A DNA stretch of 60,276 nt, the filler included, from Stramenopiles sp. TOSAG23-6 (lineage: Eukaryota), in NCBI GenBank assembly GCA_900128565.1. It is 12 parts of 12 records of this genome, joined end to end, with 100 filler letters (N's around TTAATTAATTAA, not from the genome) between each part and the next. Parts side by side here need not be neighbours in the genome. Positions count along the whole stretch, not along the records: positions 25,223 to 30,155 come from LT637012.1; 11 more parts are not named here. The stretch is one strand, 5' to 3'. Each line of letters starts with the position of its first letter. Positions within the stretch are counted from its first letter, which is position 1. Of this stretch, positions 3,376-58,112 are shown piece by piece. The notes beneath the pieces are model-generated. The model worked only from the letters and a program-made list of their open reading frames with translations. It searched no databases and was not told the origin of the DNA. A program made the translations under genes and the position numbers.

Positions 3376-3474
3376 GTACGTTTTTATTTCAATTTCGAAT
3401 TCAAATTTTTTTTTTCGTATGAAATTTTGTACCTAACAATTATTTTTTTTTCGAAATATTTTTTTACAATATAC
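3376..3474 (+). other. Family intron, GT...AC
   Basis: GTACGT donor, GTACCTAAC, ends TTACAATATAC. Removal gives VN|PAFD. Confidence 0.6.
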
Positions 3475-4951: not shown

Positions 4952-5051
4952 NNNNNNNNNNNNNNNNNNNNNNNNNNNNNNNNNNNNNNNNNNNNTTAAT
5001 TAATTAANNNNNNNNNNNNNNNNNNNNNNNNNNNNNNNNNNNNNNNNNNNN
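4952..5051. other. Artificial contig spacer (also 10002-10101, 15046-15145, 20087-20186, 25123-25222, 30156-30255, 35181-35280, 40205-40304, 45228-45327, 50248-50347, 55266-55365)
   Basis: Identical N-run/TTAATTAATTAA/N-run with stops in six frames. Flanking contigs steadily decrease in length. Confidence 0.97.
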
Positions 5052-5115
5052 TTTCATACCTAACGAATTGTTTTTTTTTACGAAAAAAAAAAAAAAATAT
5101 TTTTTTACAATACTT

Positions 5116-6048
5116 GTGATAAATGTAAAAAATTGTGTCGTCCAGGTGTATGTTTTATTTTTTTTTTCAATTTTGAATTTAGTTTTTTTTTTTATAAAAA
5201 TTTTGTACCTAACGAATTTTACAGAAAAAAAATATTTTTTCACAAGATGTTTTATTTTTTTTTTCAATTTTGAATTTAGTTTTTTTTCGTACGAAATTTT
5301 GTACCTAACGAATTTTACAGAAAAAAAATATTTTTTCACAATACGTACACCAGTTCACCGTTGTTCTTTGTGTGACTATGATGTACGTTTTGACTACTGA
5401 AATTTCGTATACATTTCATTATTGATCCGCTATTTCTTAACAAAACGTTTGACCAATTTCAAATTTATAATGTTTTTCACGATACATATGTGTGGTAATT
5501 GTATAGCTAATCAATTCTCTATAGAAAAAAAATCTGATATTGATAAAAATGAATCACGAATACAAGCATTAATTCCGCCTATAAGACCTCCACCTACAAC
5601 TTTGTATCAATTATTTATTGCTAGTGCAATGCTCAATCAAAAAATATTCGCAAAAACAAAGACTGGATGTCTACATTCGGGTATATATGTTTTCATGATG
5701 AATTTCGAATTTTTTTTTTTTTTTAAATTTTCTTTTATACGAAATTTTCGTACCTAACAAAACAAAATTTTAAATATTTTTTTACTATTTAGGGTCTGTG
5801 TTACCTCTGATTATTCCTTCCGCGCTGTGCCTAACATAAACTNTGATAAAGAGTATGAAAAGGCTTTGAAAAGTCTTGCTCCAAATTGTAAATTGAGTAT
5901 TTGTGGAGTCAGAAAAAATGATCAAAAATTGTCATCAATATTTGATCAGGAAGTGTCAACTTTATCAAAATTTGATCACCCAGTAGACTATAATTTGAAT
6001 TCTTTTCTTAGGCTTTCATTGCGAAAAAGCTTCGGGTTTCTTGTGTAA
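5116..6048 (+). CDS. ZZ-type zinc-finger protein, 3' part; exons 5116-5147, 5347-5382, 5488-5680, 5793-6048
   Basis: Spliced product CDKCKKLCRPG|TPVHRCSLCDYD|MCGNC reconstructs a ZZ finger only after intron removal. Confidence 0.75.
5148..5346 (+). other. Family intron, GT...GT, with tandemly duplicated body
   Basis: GTATGT donor, two GTACCTAAC units, ends CACAATACGT. Joins RPG|TPVH in frame. Confidence 0.7.
5383..5487 (+). other. Diverged family intron, GT...AT
   Basis: GTACGT...CACGATACAT. Joins CDYD|MCGNC. Confidence 0.75.
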
Positions 6049-9900: not shown

Positions 9901-10189
9901 GTATGTTTTATTGTTTTTCAAATTCGAATTTATTTTTTTATAAAAATTTTGTACCTAACAAATTTAATTTTTTTTTTTTGAAATATTTTTCCAAAATACA
10001 TNNNNNNNNNNNNNNNNNNNNNNNNNNNNNNNNNNNNNNNNNNNNTTAATTAATTAANNNNNNNNNNNNNNNNNNNNNNNNNNNNNNNNNNNNNNNNNNN
10101 NGGAAAAATATTTCAAAAAAAAATCGTTAGGTACAAAATTTTTATAAAAAAAAAATATAGATAAAAAATTGAAAATAAATAAAATATAC

Positions 10190-12809
10190 ATATATAGTAG
10201 AGTTTCTGTATATAAATGTGAAAGTTCTTCTGGTGATGTTATTCGATCCGTGACTATAAAGTCAATATAATCTCCACCAAAAGATGCAGGAAAACCCATG
10301 TAATTGCATTGAAACGTCGCAGGTTTCATAGCAAAAATTTCATTTCGATTACCAAAAGTATACCCATTTAAATTGATAAGAATATCTATATTATCGTTTT
10401 TAATTTCTTGTGCAGCTTTTTGATAACTCAAATGTCCAATATACACGAAATGATGAAGACTTTTTTCAATTTGACGCCTCCATCTACTTTCATCACTTTT
10501 CGTTAAAGCATAACAAAATATTTCAAATTTAGTTTTATCATGATATGCAAATAAATTCACAGTCAAATGTGCGAGTGGATGATCAGCAAAGTCAGACGAA
10601 ATATAACCGATACGCCAACGTCGTTCTTTTGATGTTGTTGTACTAACAGAATTTTTACTTACAATTCGATTGGATGTTTCATTGTCTTTACACGTATCAT
10701 TTAATATTTCAATTCGATTGGATGTTTCATTGTCTTTACTCTTATCATTTAATATTTCATTGTCATTAACATTACCTATCGCACAAGCATCAACATGTGC
10801 CCGCTTTGCATACAAATTTGCAATTTCAAGTCTTAATTCCGGTGTGAAGTCTAATGAGAGTGAAAGATGTGGATTGATAGTTGGAGTCTCTCCGTTTAAT
10901 ATTGATTTTTTAGTTACTTCTAAAACCCTCGGCATCAATAATTCTAGGGAAGTCCAGTCGCATATATGTTGGTATGAATTAGCTAAATTGGCGATACACA
11001 AACTGTGATTTGGATCTAGAAGAATGGCCTTCCTGCAGAACTTTATTGCACAATTAAAACGTTTCATATCGATGTATAATGATCCTAGATTAACGTAAGC
11101 ATTTATAAACTTGGGATTTAATTTTACCGCTTGTAGAAAAGAAAATTCCGCTTCCTGTATAAAACCTAAATCTCTCAACAATGTGCCTTTATTATTGTGC
11201 ACAAAGCCGTTATTTGGATCGATTTGTAAAGCACCGTCGTATGCCAACATACTATTTTTAAAATCTTTACGTTTTCTTAAAACATTACCTAGATTAACAA
11301 ATCCACCTATAAAATTATGAATACGAATTACGTCACGAAATACAGTCTCCGCCTTTGCCAATTGATTTGTCGATGTAAGCAAATTGCCCAATTGCAACAT
11401 CGTACCCAAACGGTATGGTTCAATATCTAAGACACTTTCCAACATTAACTTTGCTTGTTGTACACATTTCATTTCGTGTAATAAATTAGCATATCTTTCT
11501 CTGACATAGATAAAATTTGGATAGATTTGAATGGCTAATTTAAACCATTTTTCTGCGCGTATATAAAATCCGAGGCTTCTTTGAATATTTGCAAGATTGC
11601 ATATCGTGTAAATAGTATCTTGAGTTGTCAGAGTTATTTGATTTGTAGAAGGTATTTTATCTATTATAATGTTATCTACATTATTTATTTGTGTTATCTG
11701 ATGTGTAGAAGGCATTTCATCTATATTATTTATTTTGGTTATCTGATTGATAGAAGGCATATTATCCATATTATGTCCTTGTTTTTCGCGCATTCTTTTG
11801 GTATCATATTTGACATCTACATAGTTCTTATTTTCAATGATATTCTCATTTGTTTTAATTACTTCATCTAATGTAATTTTGAGTATTTCCTCGTAGATAT
11901 GTATTTTGGAAAAATATTTCAAAAAAAATATCGTTAGGTACAAAATTTCGTACTTTGAAAAAAAGTAAAACATATATGCATAGCCTGTATCTTTTCACCC
12001 GAGTCATTCAACGCATTACCTAGCATTCTCCAAATCTCAATATCGCTAGGGAGTACTGTGAAAAATATTTCAAAGAAAAATGATATGTTTTGTAAGGTAC
12101 GAAATTTCATACCAAAAAAAAATTGAAATTAGAATGTGCAACGTACAATAAGCTTATGAGCGACAGTAAAACATTTAACTGCAACATCTAAGTTTCTTTG
12201 TAGAGAAGCAATAATTCCGAGATTTTTCCAACTCAATGGCAACTCAGGAGAAAGTGATGTTGCAATTTCAAAATGATGTCGAGCCTTTGCAATTTCTTCA
12301 GTATTTGAGTATAAGACACCCAAATTGATGTGACATTTGACATTATTAGGATTTTCATTTATTGCTTGTAGATAAAGCATTTCTGCTTCCTCATAGGCAG
12401 CCTCAGACTCCAGTAACAAAGACGCAAGTTCACACATGGTATCAGTATCCTGTGGATTTATTTGGAGTGCACATCTGTATTTAACAATAGCTTCGTTAGG
12501 TCGGTCAAGTGATGTAAGAACATGACCAATATTGGAATATGCCAAGGCTCGTAAAGGCGTTGGATCATCCTCTCCTTGGAGTTTTATCGCAGTTTCGAAT
12601 AGTTTAAGTGACTCTGTATGTCGACCAAGTTTATAAACAATTGTGCCAAGTAAAAGCGCACTTTCTTCATTATGTTTAATGTTTTCTAAGTCAGACAGTG
12701 AGGCCTCATTCAGGATGTCAAATGCCTCTGTCACCTTTCCCTCGTAAAACTTTTTATGCGCGAGGCACAGCGCGGCAGCACTAAAGTGTCTGTCGCTGCG
12801 ACTTAACAT
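10190..12809 (-). CDS. OGT: O-GlcNAc transferase-like (TPR + GT41), 3' partial; exons 12809-12147, 12050-11976, 11898-10190
   Basis: Many TPRs, then RIGYISSDFADHPLAHL, IDILINLNGYT and EIFAMKPA..Q..YMGFPAS. Confidence 0.85.
11899..11975 (-). other. Family intron with ATATGT in place of GTATGT (AT...AT)
   Basis: Full internal consensus and CCAAAATACAT end. Joins MH|IYEE. Confidence 0.65.
12051..12146 (-). other. Family intron, GT...TC (acceptor uncertain by +/-3 nt)
   Basis: GTACGT...TTCACAGTACTC. Joins HKLI|PSDIE. The nearby CAG gives a frameshift and stop. Confidence 0.55.
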
Positions 12810-20022: not shown

Positions 20023-20186
20023 CTGTATTTTAGAAAAATATTTCAAAAAAAAAAACTTAAATTTGTTAGGTACAAAATTTCGTACGNNNNNNNNNNNNNN
20101 NNNNNNNNNNNNNNNNNNNNNNNNNNNNNNTTAATTAATTAANNNNNNNNNNNNNNNNNNNNNNNNNNNNNNNNNNNNNNNNNNNN

Positions 20187-25555: not shown

Positions 25556-28520
25556 TCAGTCAATTAGTTCATCTGACATTGGTGTAAATCTTTTGACCAA
25601 TTTTGTTGTATCTCTATCTCCCCCAGAAATACGTGACAATGACCACAAAAGGGGCCAAAAACTATTAGCAAGTACAACAAACAATGATACACTATCAGCT
25701 ATCACACTCAGCCATAATGCCATACCACGAAAGACAACAAGTAAAATCACGATAGCATTGATAGAAATTGCTAAACATATATTGAAAATAACAAGTTGCT
25801 GTGCTCGTTTGGCGACGATGATAGCCCCCGGTAAGTTACCTAAATCACCCTGCAGCACGGCACTAGCAGCATCAGCAGTTGTACGAGAACCAATTTCCTG
25901 TACTGCTATACCAATATCAGCATTAGCTAGTGCTATACAGTCATTCAAGCCATCGCCTATAAAAGCTACAACCTCGCCTAAATCTTTTCTCTCTTTTATC
26001 CAACGACCCTTTTCTTCTGGTAGTTGTCCTTGATAAACACCTAGCTCAAAATCAATTACAGAAGCGACAGAGTCAACAGCGGCACCCTTATCACCAGTAA
26101 GTAAAGCACACGAAATAAGTATTGTGAAAAAATATTTGAAAAACACTCCATTAGCATTAGGTACATAATTTCGTACAAGACAAAATGTAACTAAAAATTG
26201 AAACGAAAACGAACACCCGAAGCATTCAAATGCCTAAATGTTTCTACGGAATCTCCTCGAATTGTATCGCGAAGAAGAATCATACCAGCAACTATGTATT
26301 TTGGAAAAATATTTCAAAAAAAAGTAACTCCACATCGATCATGTCTCTTAAACTGTGTAAGTTGAGGTAACTCTCCAGCACCTGCAAATGAAACAACACA
26401 CCCTGTATAGCTAGACATTATTGAGCGAGCAAGCGGATGGTTATCTGCCGATTCAACTGTTGCTGCCCATCGGTGAACATCTTCAAACGTCCATCCACAA
26501 TTTAAATTTTTATCACTAGGCGGAGTAAATACTTTCATATCGATGACTTTAAACTCTCCATTCGTTATAGTACCTGTTTTGTCCACACCCACGGAAGTAA
26601 TCGAAGCCAGATTTGAAAGAGCTTCTGAAGATTTTACTAGCAATTTGTATCTTTTAGCGAGAATTGCAACAGAAGTTGCCCATACCATTGGTGCGGCACC
26701 TACAATAGCACATGGACAACCAGCTACAATGATTACAAGAAATTGAGTAAAATTGTGTTGATAGAGGGAGACAAAAATTGCTATGATTATTATAATAGGA
26801 GTGTACCTGTAATTTTCAGAAATTATTTCAAAAATTTGAAATTTGTTAGGTGCATAATTTGATACGAATAAATAAATAAATAAATTTGAAATGACTCATA
26901 CAAATTTGATACGAATAAATAAATAAATTTGAAATGAATCATACAAATTGATACGAATAAATAAATAAAAATAAATTTGAAATGAATCATAAAAACATAC
27001 CACGACGCAAACATATCTACGAGACTTTGAGTGTGAGACTTTGTGGATTGAATAGTCGCTACAAGGTCATTAATTTTGCTTCGGAAAGAATCTTTCACAA
27101 CTGCTTCTGCTTCGACGACGAGGAAACCAAATTGAACAACAGAACCTGATTGAACTCTACTCTGAAGTTTTTTATTCTTTGCAACCAAAAGTGGTTCCCC
27201 GGTAACGCGACTCTCATCAACTTGTGCTGATCCTTTAACAACTAAACCATCACAAGGAATGGATTTTGGGAAAATATGACAAAAACAAAATTCTTTTGTT
27301 AGGTACAAAACTGTCGACGAAAAAAAAAAAAAAAAAAATCCATGATGAAAATCTACATCTCCTCTCCTACTCTAATGATAATTTTCATTCCTTTCTGAAC
27401 TTTATGGATTTTGGGAAAATATTTCAAACATTAAAATCGTTAGGTACAAAATTTCGTACGAAAAAAAATCGAATTTGAAAAAAAATAACATCGATCATCC
27501 GATTTTTGCCTTTTTCCAAATCTTCACTCATAATTGTCACTTTTCGTGTTTTTTGAGTTGTCATGTATTTTGGAAAATTAAAAATACAACAATTTGTTAG
27601 ATTAGCTACGAAAGTTCGTCAGAATAAATAAATAAATTTAAAATTAAAGTCCACAACGTACATGTATTTTGGAAAAATATTTCAAAAAAAAATCGTTACG
27701 TACAAAATTTCGTACGAAAAATAATTTCGAAATTGAAAGAAAATAAAACGTACATAGTCTTCAACCTTTTACTCACAGTAGCAAAAACAGCCATTTTTAT
27801 ATCATCCATAGTAGTAACAATCAAAGCAACCATAGCCGCAGACATTAGTTCACCTTGGGCAACGGAACCAAAAATTGCTGTTACCATTAATACATCAGCA
27901 TTAATTTGATATAGTAGAAGAGCTGAGAGTGCTCTCTGGTAGACTTTATAGCTTAGTATCAGGACAATGAGATAAAAGCCTAAAGCAATTGTGGCGAGTA
28001 TAGCACCACTAGTATCATAGCTAGTTGCGTTATCATGAGACATAAGGAAGACATAGTCAAGAGAACGAAGTGAACTGATGTCACATGGAAAAGGGCAAAA
28101 TGTTGAAAATCGTTGAATAGTAATAGCTGTTGAAAATAAAATGAATTGTGCAAATAATGGTAAATGGTCACATGTGTTGGATTCCGAAGAATTGTCAACT
28201 GTGTCACCAGATTCTCTTAATGATGCTCCAAGGAACTTTGTATTGAGCTTATCGACCAGCATTAATGGCTTGACGTCCTCGGTATGTGTAATAAACACAA
28301 GTCGGTCCATGACGCTTGCTGCGATATTTCTAATACCGTCAAAATCTGAAAGTAATTGCTTCACCATCTTTACTTCCCCGTTACAACACATTGAATCAAC
28401 TCGTAAGCACGTCTCAACCAAACTTGTTGATTCTTTTGTATTGTTTTTAGGCAAAAGAGGGGAGATCTCACTTAAAGGAATTTTCTTCATTTCCGAGTTA
28501 TACAAGATTGCTAGGTTCAA
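25556..28520 (-). CDS. P1B heavy-metal (Zn/Cd-type) ATPase; introns 27662-27753, 27563-27661, 27404-27489, 27259-27356, 26807-27000, remnant ending 26294, 26117-26214
   Basis: HMA MCCNGE, GEEIPCDG, VDESRVTGE, GCPCA, DKTGT, HPLA, LLTGD, GDGLND. Confidence 0.9.
26117..26214 (-). other. Family intron, GT...TT
   Basis: GTTCGT...GTACCTAAT...TTCACAATACTT. Joins NASG|ISCALLTGD. Confidence 0.65.
26807..27000 (-). other. Family intron, GT...AG, with internal ~42-bp tandem repeats
   Basis: Joins FASW|YTP. Confidence 0.85.
27563..27753 (-). other. Two abutting GT...AT introns (27662-27753 and 27563-27661) with no exon between them
   Basis: Junction reads CCAAAATACAT|GTACGTTG. Removing both gives LKT-M-TTQK. 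Confidence 0.75.
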
Positions 28521-28849: not shown

Positions 28850-30103
28850 TCATCGCAAAGCTTCTAAAATCTTTTCAGGAGTGATTACACCATGTGCAAC
28901 AAATGAGGGTACAAAACGACCTTGTGCGAGTTGTCTATTTCCACCACCCACTACAACCTTTGCAATTTTCTTTTCTTTTCCACTTTTTGAAGAAATATGC
29001 TTTTTGCTAGGGTTGTGTTTTTTTTGTACCTTTACTTCTGCCCTTATACCTGCAGAGAGATTTTTTTCTAAAGATTTAAAGATATTACCTGCATGCTCAC
29101 CAGAATTTTTACTATCTTCACCACAGGCAACACAAAGGTAGTCCTTGCACATAAGAATATGAGTAACATTATCACTAGCATGGCGATTAAGAAGTACTTC
29201 GCCCCGCCGACGCAAAGATGAAGCACCAAGTGTGTCTGGTACATGTATTTTGGAAAAATATTTGAAAAAAAAAAAACTAAAATTTGTTAGGTACAAAATT
29301 TTGTACGAAAAAAAAATCGAATTTGAAACAAAATAAAACATACATGATGGATCCATATAGGTGTTCCTTTTGATGTTACACCTTTAGCTAATGGATCTGA
29401 TGGAGCTGATGCGCAAAATTCTCGAATAGTTTTGACTTGGGTTTTGCAATCATTCAGACTAGCTTGTAACTTTTTTACTCGCCCCAAAGCTTCATTTGGT
29501 TCAACTTTAAGAGTATTTGAAATATCTAATAATTCATCATGTTGTTGTTGTAACCAAGCAACTGCCGCACGACCAGCTACAGCTTCTATGTATTTTGGAA
29601 AAATATTTAAAAAAAAATCTAAAAAAATAGTTAGGTACGAAATTGCGTACGAAAAAAAATCGAATTTGAAAAAAAAATAAAACATACATGCGTCTTGTTC
29701 CAACAGCTACTGAAGAATCACGAATTACTTTGATTGGATAAGTTTTGTCTGTAGTTGACACATGTGTACCTCCACACAATTCTCTAGAATAAACACTATT
29801 ACTACTACTATCACCACCAATTTCAACAAGTCGAACTTCTTCTCCATACTTTTCTTCAAAATTTGCAATAGCACCAAGTTTTCTAGCATTATCAAGAGTA
29901 GTCAGAGAAGGATGAACAGTCATACCAGCAATTGCAGCAGCATTTGCCCTGGATTCCACAGCAGCAATCTCAGAATCAGACAATGCTGAAGTGTGTGTGA
30001 AATCAAATGTAAGTTTATTCGTAGCAACTTGAGAACCAGACTGAATTACATGAGTTCCCAATTCGTCGCGCAACGCACTGTGCAATATATGTGTTGCTGT
30101 ATG
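28850..30103 (-). CDS. alaS: Alanyl-tRNA synthetase (organellar-type), 3' part; introns 29588-29687 and 29243-29343
   Basis: HTATHILHSALR, LTFDFTH, FEEKYG, SRELCGGTHV, GTRRIEAVAG, GGGNRQLAQG. Confidence 0.92.
29588..29687 (-). other. Family intron, GT...AT
   Basis: Restores GTRR-I-EAV. Using the AG 2 nt downstream frameshifts. Confidence 0.9.
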
Positions 30104-35632: not shown

Positions 35633-36701
35633 TTGGTCATAAAGGGAGGTTTACCAGCACATTGGTTTGTTGAAAAACCACCGAAAGATCACTATAATTG
35701 GAGACCAACTCAACTATGGGGTTGGAGGACTCTACTGGAGAATGCCGCAAAACGAAACGATTTGAAAATGACAAATAATATTATTATGAAGAAACCATTT
35801 GAAGATGTCCGTGAATTTCTCAATATGCGTTTAATGTTGAATAAAATCGCATCAAATGGCATGGTTGCTATGTGTGCACTTCTTATAAAAAAAGGAGGTG
35901 CATTAGTTGATGGTGTTAGGGATTCAGAGAATGATCCGAAATGGAGAAAATGTCAAGAACAAGCTGGAGACTCAGATGCACATAAAGGTGCTACACCACT
36001 ACATGTATGTTTTTTTTTTTTTTTTCAAATTTATTTTTTTTTCATACGAAATTTCGTACCTAACGAATTTAAAAAAATATTTTTTCACAGTACATGATGC
36101 TGTACGTGAATGTCATGGAGGTTGTGTGAAATTACTTCTTGCTCTTGGTGCAAATCCAAATTATAAAAATGGCCTAGACTTTGCCCCGATTCATATTGCC
36201 ATCGCACACAATCCCCCAAAGAAAAAGATATTAGGAATGCTTCTTTCATCTAATAAATTAGATATTAACCAACGCGACTCGGTTGGTATGACAGCGTTAG
36301 AGATTGCCAAAGTTTGTGCCTCAAACAATCCTGCATATGATGTATTTCCTGAAATGGTCCAAATGATTGAAAAAGGAAAAACAGGTAGTCTTATTTGTGC
36401 TCGTTGTGGTATTGATGATGGTTTACTTCAAAAAGGAATGCTTCGATGCACTTGTCGGGTTTTTTATTGTAGTAAAAAGTGCCAGCGAGATCACTGGAGG
36501 GAGCATAAGCAACTTCATAAAGAATTGATGAAAATTGAGGATGACAAGACAGAAAATAAAGAAAACACATGTAATATAGAGGCGCTATTCAGACTTTCAA
36601 AAACATGTAGTGTGCAAAGGCAAAGTGATATGACATATACAAGTAGTAATAAGAAGGACAACGATGATATCGATAGTGATGTTGATTTGTCAATAGATTA
36701 A
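35633..36701 (+). CDS. Ankyrin + MYND-finger protein; intron 36005-36095; true start uncertain (35281-35606 may belong to it)
   Basis: GATPLH|DAVRECHGGCVKLLL, then CARCG...CTCRVFYCSKKCQRDHWREHK. Confidence 0.8.
36005..36095 (+). other. Family intron, GT...AT
   Basis: Restores ankyrin TPLH|DA. The upstream CAG at 36090 gives a frameshift and stop. Confidence 0.88.
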
Positions 36702-47973: not shown

Positions 47974-50190
47974 TTATATTTTATTGGGTAATATGGGGTA
48001 ACGTAGCAATGGAGCTGAATTATCCAGCAACAAAGTCAAATTTGGAAATTCTTTCGAAGTAGGAGCACACATTAATGTTGCAAGACTAGGTAATCTACGT
48101 ACTGCTATAGTCACCAGGCAATGTCGTATACATCCACCATCAAGAAATGCTACTGCTAAACTTTCAGGACGACTTTCACTAAATCGTAAAACATAGCTAC
48201 CATCTACATGCTTTTGTCTTAGTAATTTCTCGGCTTCTATTTTTGATATAAAGCCATATAATCTACCACTACAATACTCTGATGATACATGAGCATCGGA
48301 TAATACATGTAATGATGGAGCAATTAATTTGACAGTAGCACGCATCCAACTACGTCCTGTTACTAACCAATTCTTGAAAGGAACATGAGATTTAGATTCC
48401 TTTTGGTCTACGCATTTTTTCGACATAAATTCTAATTGTTTTTTGTCAAATGAACGTTTCGTCATTGCATTAGTTGCATCATCACTTAACATCTCCTCAC
48501 AAAACTGATACATCCAATTGGGTAATTTATGCACAGGTAGAAAAACATTTATATTTACACATTCACTAACACCTTGTTGTGAAATGGTTGAAAGATCATT
48601 CATCGATATTTTAGAACTTTTACAGATACTATGACTGCTTTGTCCATGTTTTTCAATTGAGATAGAAATGTCAGTCCATATATGTGCAGCAACAGCATGA
48701 GCATCTTTTACAGAGTCAAAACGACGACGTCTCTTCAAAGGAGCAGCAGCCCTTGTCTTTTTTTTTTTTATTTGTTTTTTTTTTTTTGTTTTGTGCCAAT
48801 TTGCCGAGGTTGATCTATTTTATCGATACGTACATCAAATCGTTTATGTCTTGGTGTAGACATATTCTTATAGATTTCAATAGAGGCAGATAGAATACTA
48901 GACAGAGACGTTGCAGCACCAGTAACTTCATCCTGTAACAACTTGACGGCCATTACTATAGATTGAGGATGACCATGCAATGCAACAAGAACAGGATGTA
49001 TTGCAAGTTTTGAAATAGCTGAGCGACGAGGAATCATATTACTAGAATTGTTGGTGCTGCTTTTTGTCACTCTACTTGTTGGTGTCTCGAGAGAACCCGA
49101 AGAGGAGGATAATAATGGGTCTTGTGATCCTTGTTGTTGTATTAAATTATTTTCTACTTTTTCTACCTCTTGCATTGTCAGTATCCGCGGGGAAAGTTTT
49201 GAGAATAATTTCGCCGAATCTTCAGGGGATAATGAAGTGACTTTTACTACTTTTTCTCCCTCAAGACCAGTAAGATGTTCTGAAGTAACTAATATACGAA
49301 TCCAAGGCGCATGTCTCAGTAATAAAGCCACAACATCTTGTGTCGTTCGAGACATTATACTAGAAATGTTAGGGTTTTGATGAGACGTGGTCCCTTCCCA
49401 ACCATCAATAAATAATAAACAATTTTCTGCATTCGTACCACGGATATGAATTATACGAAGCATCTCTTGCAATGCTTGATTCATTTCATTTTCACTATTA
49501 TTATTCATTATATTATCATTGATTTCATCATTCATCTTACTATTTTCATCAATTGTAGGGTTTGTAGGGTTAGGGGTAGATTTTGTTCTTGATATAGTAT
49601 TATTATTCAATTGTTGAGGAATACGGGAAATATTTATTGATGTGTTATTACATAGACATCGACATATTGCTCTACACAAAACAATTGTAGTAAGTATTTT
49701 TGCAAGTCTTTCTGTTTCATCATTTGTTTCTACGGTATTTAAAAGTTTCAATTTTTGATTTAGAAATTTTTGATGTAAAACTTTGTCTTGGATAATTGGT
49801 TTGTTTTTCGTAGAGTGGATATTCGCAGTATCAGCAGCGAAATAATCACTTCCAAATAATTCATTTGTTTTTAAACGAATTGAAAAAACACCTCCTAAAA
49901 ATAATCTCCTATCATTACATCTATGACACAAAAAAAGCGCAATGGTCGTCTTTCCGATACCCGGTACTCCTAATAAAGTTACAACTCGACCACCTCCCTC
50001 TCGGCTTAACAAAGCAAAACCAGCTTGAGCTTGTACAGCTCTACCTATAAACGTTTTTTGGTGGATGACCAGAATCACAAAATGGGAGAGCTCGTGGTTG
50101 AATAAAAGGTCCCATTTTTACAGTGGTAGATGGAAATACTGTATTTTGATGTACATTTGTATCATTTGGTAGCAATTGGAAGAATTCAGC
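47974..50190 (-). CDS. STAND/NB-ARC-type NTPase with C-terminal STAT-like SH2 domain (5' partial; frameshifts near 50060 and 48760)
   Basis: FIGR, GVPGIGKT, LLFIDG, ILVTSE, LHGHPQSI, then GFISKIEAEKLL...GSYVLRFSESRP. Confidence 0.7.
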
Positions 50191-56534: not shown

Positions 56535-58112
56535 CTATTNACTAATCTTTTCTAAAGCTTCTTTAACTGATTTCACTGAACTCATTTTAGTTTTATGAGT
56601 ATCCATTAAATTAGAAATACGTTTTGTATTTGATTCAGAATATCCAGCTTTTTTCAAAATAGTAGCAGCATCTTTCACTTTCATTTTCTCCATTTTTTTT
56701 CCAGTCACAAAAATGACAGATTCTGGATGAGGACATAAATTTGGCATGTTTGACTTTTTCAAATATGATGTAGAAGAAATTAAATTTACATCCCCTTTCG
56801 TTTTAGATGTACCTTTTTCAATATGACTACTCCAAGCACGTGCTACACCAGAGTCTGTCCATATAGCATGATGTTTAGCATACACATTTTCATTGTTGAT
56901 GATTTCATTTGACTTTGAGTCATTGAATGTAAACAATAAAATAGATTTTTTAGATTTTGTTAAAAATACAAAACACGAAATCGGTGCTGTTGGTACAAAA
57001 GAAATGTTTTCGATTTTATCCACTGTGCCATACGAAGTTCATGTATTGGTGAAAATATATTTACGTTTGAACGTTTTGTTAGGTATAAAAACTCATAGAT
57101 TTTTTTTAGAAAAAAAAAGAATGAAAATCATTAGGGTTAGGGTTATAAACATACCTGCACAATCCATTTGATCCAAACGCCATCGTGGTACAGCTTCAGG
57201 TCTAGTATCAAGAGAATAAGCATCTACTTCTTCTTGTGATAGTTGTGTGAATTTTTCATCTCTCCAAGGACCAGATCGTCCAGTTTTTTCTGTATACGCT
57301 TCACGTGCGTCATTGATTGTTTCTGCTGCCACTGCAATTTGAGCTTGTAAAGCAGTCACTGAGACATCACCTGAAACAACAATACGACATGTGTGAACTA
57401 ACTCATCATGAACACGATGATCAATTGCTTTCGAAATAGCAATAAACGATTGATCAGTCATTTTTGAAGTGTGGTATATAGTTATTGGATGTGGCTCTTT
57501 TGGTGCCCTTGTGGGTACAGCACACAAAATTTTCTGGGCAGCAGCTACAAAAGTAGGCGTGTCCGATATTATACGAGTACGTAATTCAGCACTTCTATGA
57601 GACCCTATAGATGCGTCATGAACAAACACATCAGTCACGTTAGATAAGTGGTCCGTCACCGAGTCATATACAGTAGCAAAATCACCTGATAAATCTGATG
57701 GCAACACATTTTTTTTTGATTCAATTGATACAGTGCCATTTTTTTCCACAGATAAACCATGGTTTTGTAGTTTACGGATACTCAAGTTACGATATGCGTT
57801 TGACATTGGTGAAACATCATCAGTACATAAAGACCAGTTTAAAGCGTAGTTACGCCCTGGACCTTCGCGTGGAAACGACATGACATCCGCATCAAAGTCT
57901 GGAGTACCCCAAAGTGGATCGGTCTTGCCACTTGACAAAGGTGGTGGTAACGATGTGGCGTCTCCAAACACTTCACCGTTTCTGTGACGCATCAGTGGGC
58001 GTCCTGCTTTATCTACGTCTCCTTCAGCCAATGCACAGAATGACCTGACGCCTCTAGCAAATACATAACGAGATGCCTTTACAGTTGAAGCTCTAAGCAA
58101 TGTTGTGACCAT
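56535..58112 (-). CDS. Mitochondrial-targeted, degenerate PEPCK(ATP)-like protein; intron 57041-57154
   Basis: Arg/Ser-rich presequence. DVFVHDASIGSHRSAELRTRIISD resembles the PEPCK N-domain; no Walker A seen. Confidence 0.55.
57041..57154 (-). other. Family intron, CAG|GT...AT
   Basis: Joins DCA-G-TSYG. A 2-nt upstream register would create TGA. Confidence 0.85.

Follow-up and report, generated by a model that had tools for sequence, protein, structure and literature searches.

In this work we analyse the 3' end of a short intron at positions 26117..26214 (minus strand) of a 60,276-nt stretch of DNA from Stramenopiles sp. TOSAG23-6 (GenBank assembly GCA_900128565.1), the whole of which is called the window below. 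The intron, called the target, interrupts a heavy-metal P-type ATPase gene and ends in TT, two nucleotides past a TAC motif, and the RNA of two studies skips exactly 26117-26214. Almost all eukaryotic introns end in AG, with the AG being read directly in the catalytic centre. We propose, with a probability of about 0.6, that the feature is the 3' end of an introner-like, transposon-like spliceosomal intron, the cut of which is set by the element's own end and not by an AG.

Based on this proposal, near-identical spliceosomal introns of ~100 nt would have spread through genes of an uncultured marine eukaryote, and the intron that is removed would consist of the element together with the next two bases. 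These last two bases would most likely be the second copy of a 2-bp target-site duplication, for the most part AT but in some copies GT, AC or TT-like; their identity would then come from the host gene rather than from the element. The splicing machinery would then bypass the AGs lying past the branch box and cut at a position fixed by the element terminus. What sets this position could be the box that holds TAC, or else the few bases of that box that can pair with the 5' end (G+1:C-3 and U+2:A-4). The spliceosomal catalysis, the origin by transposition and the physical basis of the cut are the parts that we infer, and they are weighed against other possibilities below.

RNA junction and gene context of the target intron

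The target and the surrounding parts of the ATPase gene are:
26117..26214, minus strand: target intron, 98 nt, GTTCG...CAATAC-TT, heavy-metal P-type ATPase gene
26119..26130, minus strand: 3' box of the target, TTTTCACAATAC, an exact match to TTTYCAMAATAC, followed by TT at 26118-26117
26156..26166, minus strand: branch-site-like box of the target, ATGTACCTAAT (family consensus TTGTACCTAAC)
26215..26295, minus strand: upstream exon of the target, 27 codons, IVAGMILLRDTIRGDSVETFRHLNASG, present in RNA contigs
25559..26116, minus strand: last ATPase exon, ISCALLTGDK..., covered by RNA; match to PF00702 Hydrolase at E 1.2e-4, below the Pfam cut-off
26807..27000, minus strand: canonical GT-AG intron of the same gene, 194 nt, ending ...TTACAG, a diverged family member

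The junction was tested by aligning Logan RNA and DNA contigs to the contig at 25223-30155, to which the RNA results given here refer. X5, X7 and X8 denote RNA contig sets, with X5 and X8 coming from two different studies of seawater poly(A) metatranscriptomes, and X3 denotes an independent contig set from a seawater DNA metagenome. Reading along the minus strand, the upstream exon ends ...GCT TCG GGT, the intron begins with GTTCGTTTTCG at 26214 and finishes with TTTTCACAATAC-TT at 26117, and the downstream exon starts ATT TCG TGT. In record 10 of X5 the interval 26039-26116 is joined without any gap to 26215-26295, and record 25 of X8, from the other study, joins 26029-26116 to the same 26215-26295. 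Because base 26117 is identical to base 26215, the cut is ambiguous by one base, being either GT..TT or TG..CT, and other registers do not fit. An intron ending 2 nt past TAC, as the initial annotation had inferred here, is thus borne out by the RNA contigs of both studies, and the displacement of the acceptor by 3 nt, which the annotation had allowed for, is excluded by the same RNA for the target. Moreover, the RNA depth of X5 in the bin 26048-26212 is 1.71, which is the value expected from the exon part alone.

The DNA behaves differently from the RNA. Record 3 of X3 (630 nt, covering 25688-26317) is colinear through the target, with identical end bases and only two differences from the window, at 26222 and 26248. 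As this independent DNA contig keeps the same end bases, the ends of the target are not base-call errors, a possibility that had been named as one that would refute the annotation; and as the target is kept in DNA and absent from the RNA contigs, the 98 nt are removed from RNA. A germline-limited segment, of the kind of the internal eliminated sequences of ciliates, was also considered and is ruled out, because the metagenome DNA contig keeps the target and the poly(A) RNA contigs are without it. It is noted that the RNA contigs also skip the canonical GT-AG intron at 26807-27000, by a joint 26803>26998 (cut +3) seen in X5, X7 and X8, so that these contigs are ordinary mRNA. Inside this canonical intron the family profile matches at 26891-26813.

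The product of splicing at the target reads ...LNASG|ISCALLTGDK, in which the TGD motif of a P-type ATPase follows at the distance expected for it. An E1-E2_ATPase match, below the Pfam cut-off, lies in an upstream exon, and exon 26215..26295 is bounded on its 5' side by the next family intron, whose 3' end is AT. The target itself is a diverged member of the family described below, with a profile match over 26210-26119 at E 6.7e-14. Its box ATGTACCTAAT is presumably the branch site, from its likeness to the yeast TACTAAC box, and the presumed branch A then lies 40 nt from the intron end. An AG situated 29 nt before the intron end is skipped.

At two places in this gene the contig and the RNA disagree. 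At 26296-26322 (minus strand) the contig seems to be collapsed between two intron copies, with just the last ~30 intron nt following the exon end at 26323, and two RNA records (X7 record 16 and X5 record 10) continue near there into exon sequence that is absent from the contig, from which it follows that at least one ATPase exon is missing at 26296-26322. At 27405-27495 (minus strand) the 5' end of an intron copy is short by ~11 nt, including the GT, relative to the family, and a loose end of the RNA at 27405 shows that the upstream exon ends otherwise than on the contig. Either an allele with a deletion or an error of the assembly lies behind this discrepancy.

The intron family, its 3' ends and the flanking repeat

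The 12-mer TTTYCAMAATAC occurs 33 times in the window with at most one mismatch, as compared with 5.88 +/- 2.28 occurrences expected, and none of 100 shuffles reaches 33. The initial annotation had named this 12-mer as the constant feature and had inferred that the 3' site is positioned by an upstream motif or by pairing with the 5' end. Its enrichment holds, but constancy alone does not show positioning, since the 12-mer is constant largely because the introns are copies of one ~100-nt family, of which it forms the tail. A total of 19 full copies align colinearly from GTAYG to the second base after TAC, and the profile built from these 19 copies has 47 matches at E<1e-3 in the 60,276 nt, i.e., about one per 1.3 kb, with many copies lying at contig ends. 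The members to which the argument refers are:
29588..29687, minus strand: typical young copy, [AT]GTATG...AAATAC[AT], alanyl-tRNA synthetase (AlaRS) gene; profile E 1.8e-16
12051..12146, minus strand: family intron ending TAC-TC; flank TT, no direct repeat
36005..36095, plus strand: family intron ending CAGTAC-AT
5148..5346, plus strand: family intron with flank GT and end TAC-GT, a matching direct repeat
3376..3474, plus strand: family intron with flank AC and end TAT-AC, a matching direct repeat
27563..27753, minus strand: tandem family introns 27753-27662 and 27661-27563, in the order AT-copy-AT-copy-AT with no exon between
11899..11975, minus strand: family intron with A at +1, starting ATATG and not GTATG; flank AT

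The copies open with a GTATG or GTACG donor and a TTTT run; an internal palindrome beside a TACCTAAC box comes next, then a T-rich stretch, and last TTTYCAMAATAC plus two bases. The donor has G at +1 in 36 of 37 introns, T at +2 in 36 of 37, A at +3 in 35 of 37 and G at +5 in 34 of 37, with the consensus GTATGTTTT/GTACGTTTT. The introns thus carry the GT of U2-type spliceosomal introns within a U1-complementary donor; the AG 3' end of that class they do not, as a rule, carry. A box like TACCTAAC is present in all 37, with the presumed branch A at 32-52 nt from the end (88 nt in one intron); we take this box to be akin to the yeast branch site, and the donor to be yeast-like too. The ends may form a short terminal inverted repeat, with (AT)GTAT-TTTT complementary to AAAATAC(AT) except for one bulge; this complementarity is absent in the target. 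The family sits in genes for an ATPase, AlaRS, TPR, ankyrin/MYND and carrier proteins, and others, and all 28 full copies are in the sense orientation within open reading frames (ORFs); many similar introns in unrelated genes, the hallmark of introners, are thus found here.

The ends that the initial annotation had listed are all present, namely TACTT at 5115, TACTC at 12051, TACGT at 5346 and 50191, TATAC at 3474 and TACAG at 20023, 42504 and 44396. The copies at 5115 and 50191 lie at contig ends beside linkers, with their 5' halves missing, and were left out of the checks of intron ends. Among 38 curated 3' ends there are 28 AT, 4 AG, 2 TT, 2 GT, 1 AC and 1 TC. The rule of TAC plus any two bases, as originally put forward, therefore keeps one part and loses another: there are six types of end, with 6 of the 38 neither AT nor AG, and at the same time AT makes up 28/38 and AG 4/38, with 1.23 bits at -2 and 1.14 bits at -1. 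These values are about equal to those at -3 and -4, and none of the ten ends other than AT finishes in A. Conservation drops sharply past intron position -1, with exon +1 carrying 0.23 bits. For an ordinary AG acceptor the value is ~2 bits per position. The acceptor dinucleotide is variable but not free, and AT is the rule. Note also that the TAC box itself varies, being TAT, TCC, AAC or TGT in nine copies, with C at -3 in 33 of 38 ends and C or U there in 37 of 38.

When the cut is placed two bases past TAC, both flanking frames are open in 27 of the 28 two-ended introns, the 28th abutting N, and the 28 introns fall in all three codon phases. The reading frame alone is blind to shifts of 3 nt; the phase of protein domains excludes such shifts in four introns. 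Across 12051-12146 the 34-residue TPR period of Pfam is kept exactly over ...AHKLI|PSD-IEIW..., and the use of a TAG lying 6 nt downstream of the 12051 end would remove the conserved proline position. At 36005-36095 the upstream exon ends KGATPLH, which are Ank positions 1-7, and the second residue downstream is Ank profile position 9. At 29588-29687 the junction reads GTRR|IEAVAG, with tRNA_SAD covering positions 1-42 of 44, and the exon after 3474 starts PAFDCTP..., which corresponds to positions 258-275 of the IF-2B profile.

Splicing passes over an AG located past the branch-like box in 17 of the 33 non-AG introns. At 12051 and 36095 even a CAG that is 5 nt before the end is skipped, these junctions being backed by the TPR and Ank phases, and use of the CAG at either place would shift the frame. 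This agrees with the original claim that the 3' site is not found by YAG scanning. AG scanning was rejected as a candidate on account of these skipped AGs, including the CAG at -5, and a rule of the first AT also fails, as earlier AT dinucleotides are present within the 3' box. Since the distance from branch to end ranges over 32-52 nt, with one of 88, the end is not set by a fixed branch distance. Moreover, the copies with an extra A before TAC (42504, 44396 and 15413) still end 2 nt past TAC, which together with the variable branch distance ties the end to the element terminus and not to the T/C-rich part of the box.

A feature that the initial annotation had missed is that the variable last bases usually equal the two exon bases before GT, which is the case in 21 of 28 pairs, a number reached by 0.035% of shuffles. 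The two exon bases are AT in 28 of 37 copies, with 0.97 bits at exon -2 and 1.34 bits at exon -1 as against 0.08 bits at exon -3, and as the AT flank is conserved in all codon phases it is not a coding constraint. The matching pairs comprise 19 AT/AT and 2 non-AT pairs (GT/GT at 5148-5346 and AC/AC at 3376-3474), the non-AT count being reached by 3.3% of shuffles. Judged from sequence, this repeat looks like a 2-bp target-site duplication, which would explain the variable last bases; the intron would then be the element plus one duplicate, and splicing would restore the original message.

Some further observations on the family were made. Within the intron at 5148-5346 (plus strand) most of the element is duplicated in tandem, with a second partial copy from 5257, and a micro-exon of 32 nt (5116-5147) sits between this and another family intron. 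The host of 11899-11975 is a TPR/glycosyltransferase-like gene, with the frame open across the intron. In X3 DNA, to which 5,291 contigs were aligned, the summed contig depth over intron copies is thousands-fold that over exons (e.g., 33,063 versus ~5-10), which suggests that very many copies of the family are present in the community, the depth itself not being a copy number. A scan of public metagenomes for the branch box together with the 3' box gave 31 loci, of which 30 are chance matches by inspection and one, L023, is a true relative. Locus L023 (1-846, minus strand) has one family copy at ~400-505, with AT on both sides, in an ORF of higher G+C, so a relative of the source organism exists in another data set. 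A 22-nt core of the family had 0 matches in genome contigs and 0 in viral contigs.

Possible explanations and known systems

What places the cut can be discussed in terms of the pairing of the two intron ends. In typical copies a terminal helix can be drawn between (AT)GUAU at the 5' junction and AUAC(AU) at the 3' end, and in predicted folds this terminal helix is present in three of four other copies folded, the fourth pairing GUAC with GUAC. For the target, the predicted fold has z = 0.34 with the intron ends unpaired, G+1:C-3 and U+2:A-4 being the remaining possible end contacts. No covariation between donor +4 and position -6 was found in the 19-copy alignment, and the GTACG copies keep A at -6, so that nothing past three pairs is maintained. 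On the folding predictions, the unpaired ends of the target would favour either the motif, which a protein or an snRNA might read, or a minimal contact of G+1:C-3 and U+2:A-4. The C or U at -3 would suit such a G+1 contact and equally well the ordinary pyrimidine of a YAG-like site. Geometries like those of RNase III and of the tRNA endonuclease were tried as well and rejected, as the helix does not run past the border with the exon, its offset is 2 bp instead of 4, and no helix is predicted for the target.

A more specific form of the proposal would be that the spliceosome sets the cut of the second step by a ruler from the intron terminus, with the TAC box, the C and A of which can pair with G+1 and U+2 of the donor, placing the bond two bases on, whatever these bases are. 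We put this forward tentatively, as a possibility with the odds somewhat against it. If it is true, the acceptor dinucleotide would be irrelevant, a transposon that duplicates 2 bp would become a clean intron at almost any target, and it would be explained how the element colonised most genes.

Several points weigh against our proposal. In the AT/AT copies the registers AT..AC, TG..CA and GT..AT yield identical mRNA, and the copy at 11899-11975, with its start ATATG, fits AT..AC better than the GT register. Among the joints listed, RNA support for an end that is neither AT nor AG comes from the target only. At 57041, the end of the intron 57154-57041, there is an in-frame canonical CAG 18 nt downstream that is compatible with the frame, and in Pfam no family covers the junction of this gene. 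The copies are near-identical, and the conservation of the motifs may reflect youth and not function. With regard to the duplication, the terminal inverted repeat is short (~6-10 nt), the match of flank and end outside AT rests on two introns, and insertion beside a preferred AT without any duplication would yield identical AT/AT copies. The target (GT versus TT) is, moreover, one of the 7 pairs out of 28 in which flank and end differ, and for those copies the duplication would need later mutation. It is noted that the mismatched target and 12051 (TT versus TC) are the most diverged copies and that each needs only a single later change in its intronic copy; the exonic GT before the target codes for a conserved glycine, and three of the four AG ends would be one change away from AT.

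It can be supposed instead that the standard copies are truly AT...AC introns, both cuts of which lie two bases further upstream, with the target and the other copies that have no repeat being degenerate exceptions. The ambiguity of register bears on this directly, as 21 of the 28 introns give the same mRNA under AT..AC and GT..AT, and the ATATG start of the 11975 copy and the C at -3 in 33/38 ends would also fit; moreover, the classical A-C terminal pair is tolerated by both spliceosomes (PMC13326754). By contrast, the RNA of two studies places the junction of the target 2 nt past TAC and directly before GTTCG, and the copies without a flank repeat, together with this RNA, point to the register GT..NN. 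The consensus GTATGT/GTACGT, with G+1, T+2 and G+5 at 92-97%, reads as a standard donor at +1, the intron 57154-57041 (flank AG) would gain an in-frame TGA in every register but GT..NN, the ..AC register included, and four copies end TAC-AG, being ordinary GT..AG introns, one of them confirmed by RNA. We thus consider a general AT...AC register unlikely. Removal outside the spliceosome, by an endonuclease and a ligase that recognise a helix of the intron ends, as proposed for euglenid and hemistasiid introns, would account for the AUGUAU/AUACAU pairing in typical copies, for the helix predicted in most of the other copies folded, and for two cuts offset by 2 nt on the terminal helix, and direct repeats at the junctions with inverted ends are hallmarks of such introns (PMC11282704; PMC12621601). 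Yet the target, which has no such helix in its predicted fold, is cut at the homologous positions, pairing shows no covariation beyond +3 with A kept at -6 opposite GTACG, the donor and the branch-like box are strongly conserved and look spliceosomal, and four copies are plain GT-AG, so that we give this mechanism a low probability.

Introns of U12 type, removed by the minor spliceosome, tolerate several 3' terminal dinucleotides, and the extended, nearly invariant donor and branch-like boxes combined with non-AG ends could recall them. The donor is, however, GTATGTTTT/GTACGTTTT and not RTATCCTT, with G+5 in 34/37, and long T runs are present. U12-type branch sites lie ~10-26 nt from the 3' end, whereas the branch-like box lies here at 32-52 nt, with no conserved TCCTTAAC box close to the end, and the assignment to U12 is very improbable. 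An artefact, whether misassembly of an amplified single-cell genome, miscalled bases at the intron ends or DNA of an allele without the intron taken for RNA, might be suggested by the collapse at 26296-26322, by the ~11 nt lacking at 27405-27495 relative to RNA, by the frequent breaks of contigs inside copies, and by the fact that Logan contigs of RNA libraries can hold DNA. Against this, the independent metagenome DNA contig repeats 25688-26317 with the same end bases, the same junction occurs in RNA of two studies in which the neighbouring GT-AG intron is skipped too, and the X5 RNA depth of 1.71 matches the exon share only; an artefact is hardly credible.

The proposed spliceosomal, introner-like origin can be compared with known systems. 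In Fritillaria borealis (Henriet et al. 2019) a species-specific mass of non-canonical introns derives from miniature inverted-repeat transposable elements (MITEs), with AG-AC and AG-AT dominating and GT-AG below 10% of introns; the U2-type spliceosome removes these non-AG introns, and recognition of the unusual 3' ends falls to duplicated U2AF paralogues, which bind them (PMC13326754; PMC11282704). The family here is similar in its probable inverted ends, its junction repeats, its non-AG 3' ends, which in Fritillaria are often AC or AT, and a TAC trinucleotide at the junction, and it differs in that the 5' end in Fritillaria is non-canonical too, whereas here the donor is GTATG/GTACG in 36/37 and just the 3' dinucleotide departs. 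In the introners of Amoebophrya (Syndiniales) neither a donor nor an acceptor signature is clear, and no U1 has been found in that lineage; they share with the present family repeated introns, direct repeats at the borders (there 3-5 nt), inverted repeats (there 8-20 nt, here putative) and variable dinucleotides (PMC7789003). Here, by contrast, donor and branch box show strong conservation, and the repeats are shorter, with 2 nt for the direct one and ~6-10 nt for the putative inverted one.

Short, near-identical introners, hundreds to thousands in number, occur in unrelated genes of Micromonas, Aureococcus and many aquatic protists (PMC9860276; PMC11282704). The likeness lies in the signatures, here probable ones, of target-site duplication and terminal inverted repeats, in one splice site coming from the element and the other being tied to the duplication, and in splicing restoring the mRNA; the difference is that classical introners are GY-AG, with the duplication giving a canonical AG or GT, and that here the duplicate would be the last two bases, mostly AT. 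In euglenids and hemistasiid diplonemids end pairing is a prominent trait of the introns, and the spliceosome probably has no part in their excision (PMC12621601; PMC6221363); variable borders, junction repeats resembling target-site duplications and, in typical copies, predicted end pairing are in common with our family (PMC4770533; PMC12621601; PMC11282704). Those introns, unlike ours, are without a U1-complementary donor and rely on stable end pairing, with Euglena introns being excised as circles, whereas here the canonical donor is conserved and the RNA-verified target is without end pairing in its predicted fold. The family thus differs from the Fritillaria, Amoebophrya and euglenid/hemistasiid cases, the three in which non-AG ends are known in large numbers, in having a textbook donor and branch box, with only the last two bases departing and GT..AT dominant.

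Searches of the literature on GT-AT introns, on non-canonical introns of marine single-cell genomes and on diplonemids did not yield a description of the family, a 2016 diplonemid single-cell study lying outside this scope. That paper, on marine diplonemid single-cell genomes, is cited in other papers for non-canonical introns predicted without RNA. In the available part of supplement 1 of PMC9860276, two motifs of the family were not found.

The family offers a natural system in which a conventional-looking donor and branch box go with an acceptor that is mostly AT and also TT, TC, GT or AC, so that the choice of the 3' site can be viewed separately from the other parts of splicing; in Fritillaria and Amoebophrya, the two best-known cases, the 5' end is scrambled as well as the 3' end. 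As the last two bases resemble a target-site duplication, the odd acceptor may be tied to the mode of insertion, and a mobile element and a tolerant spliceosome would provide a concrete route by which a genome is filled with introns. In practical terms, a gene finder that insists on AG would disrupt almost all genes of this organism, and assemblies from short reads are interrupted or collapsed at the family copies.

Source of the window and side observations

The window consists of 12 contigs of ~4.9 kb each, sorted by falling size, with 60,276 nt in total and 11 linkers (e.g., 4952-5051 and 10002-10101, about every 5 kb) made of N runs around a six-frame stop linker. Its G+C is ~33%, and the ORFs are open under the standard code and broken up by short introns. 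The window is represented in two small single-organism DNA runs, in several DNA metagenomes from seawater and in many poly(A) metatranscriptomes, likewise from seawater, which points to an uncultured marine eukaryote as the source, with an assembly that was probably made from one amplified cell. Copies of the intron family contain at least 11 of the contig ends, from which it follows that the assembly broke at these repeats.

A scan against Rfam and a tRNA scan of the window gave no match. Neighbouring genes on one contig are often oppositely oriented, with short spacers, and the arrangement leaves the impression, and only that, of being unlike the long one-directional gene arrays of euglenozoans. 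An ORF at 47977-48819 (minus strand) has an SH2 domain (Pfam E 1.5e-9), and its core motif looks, by eye, like the one in STAT proteins, a likeness that may be of use in placing the organism.

Finally, we note that a telomere-like repeat, CCCTAACCCTAA, occurs 7 times as compared with 0.01 expected:
30651, 31029, 31047, 31245, 43296, 57131 and 59986: CCCTAACCCTAA sites

Repeats of this type are also carried by locus L023. In the window, two of the sites lie just after intron donors, and several lie within an ORF rich in Asn-Pro (NPNPN).

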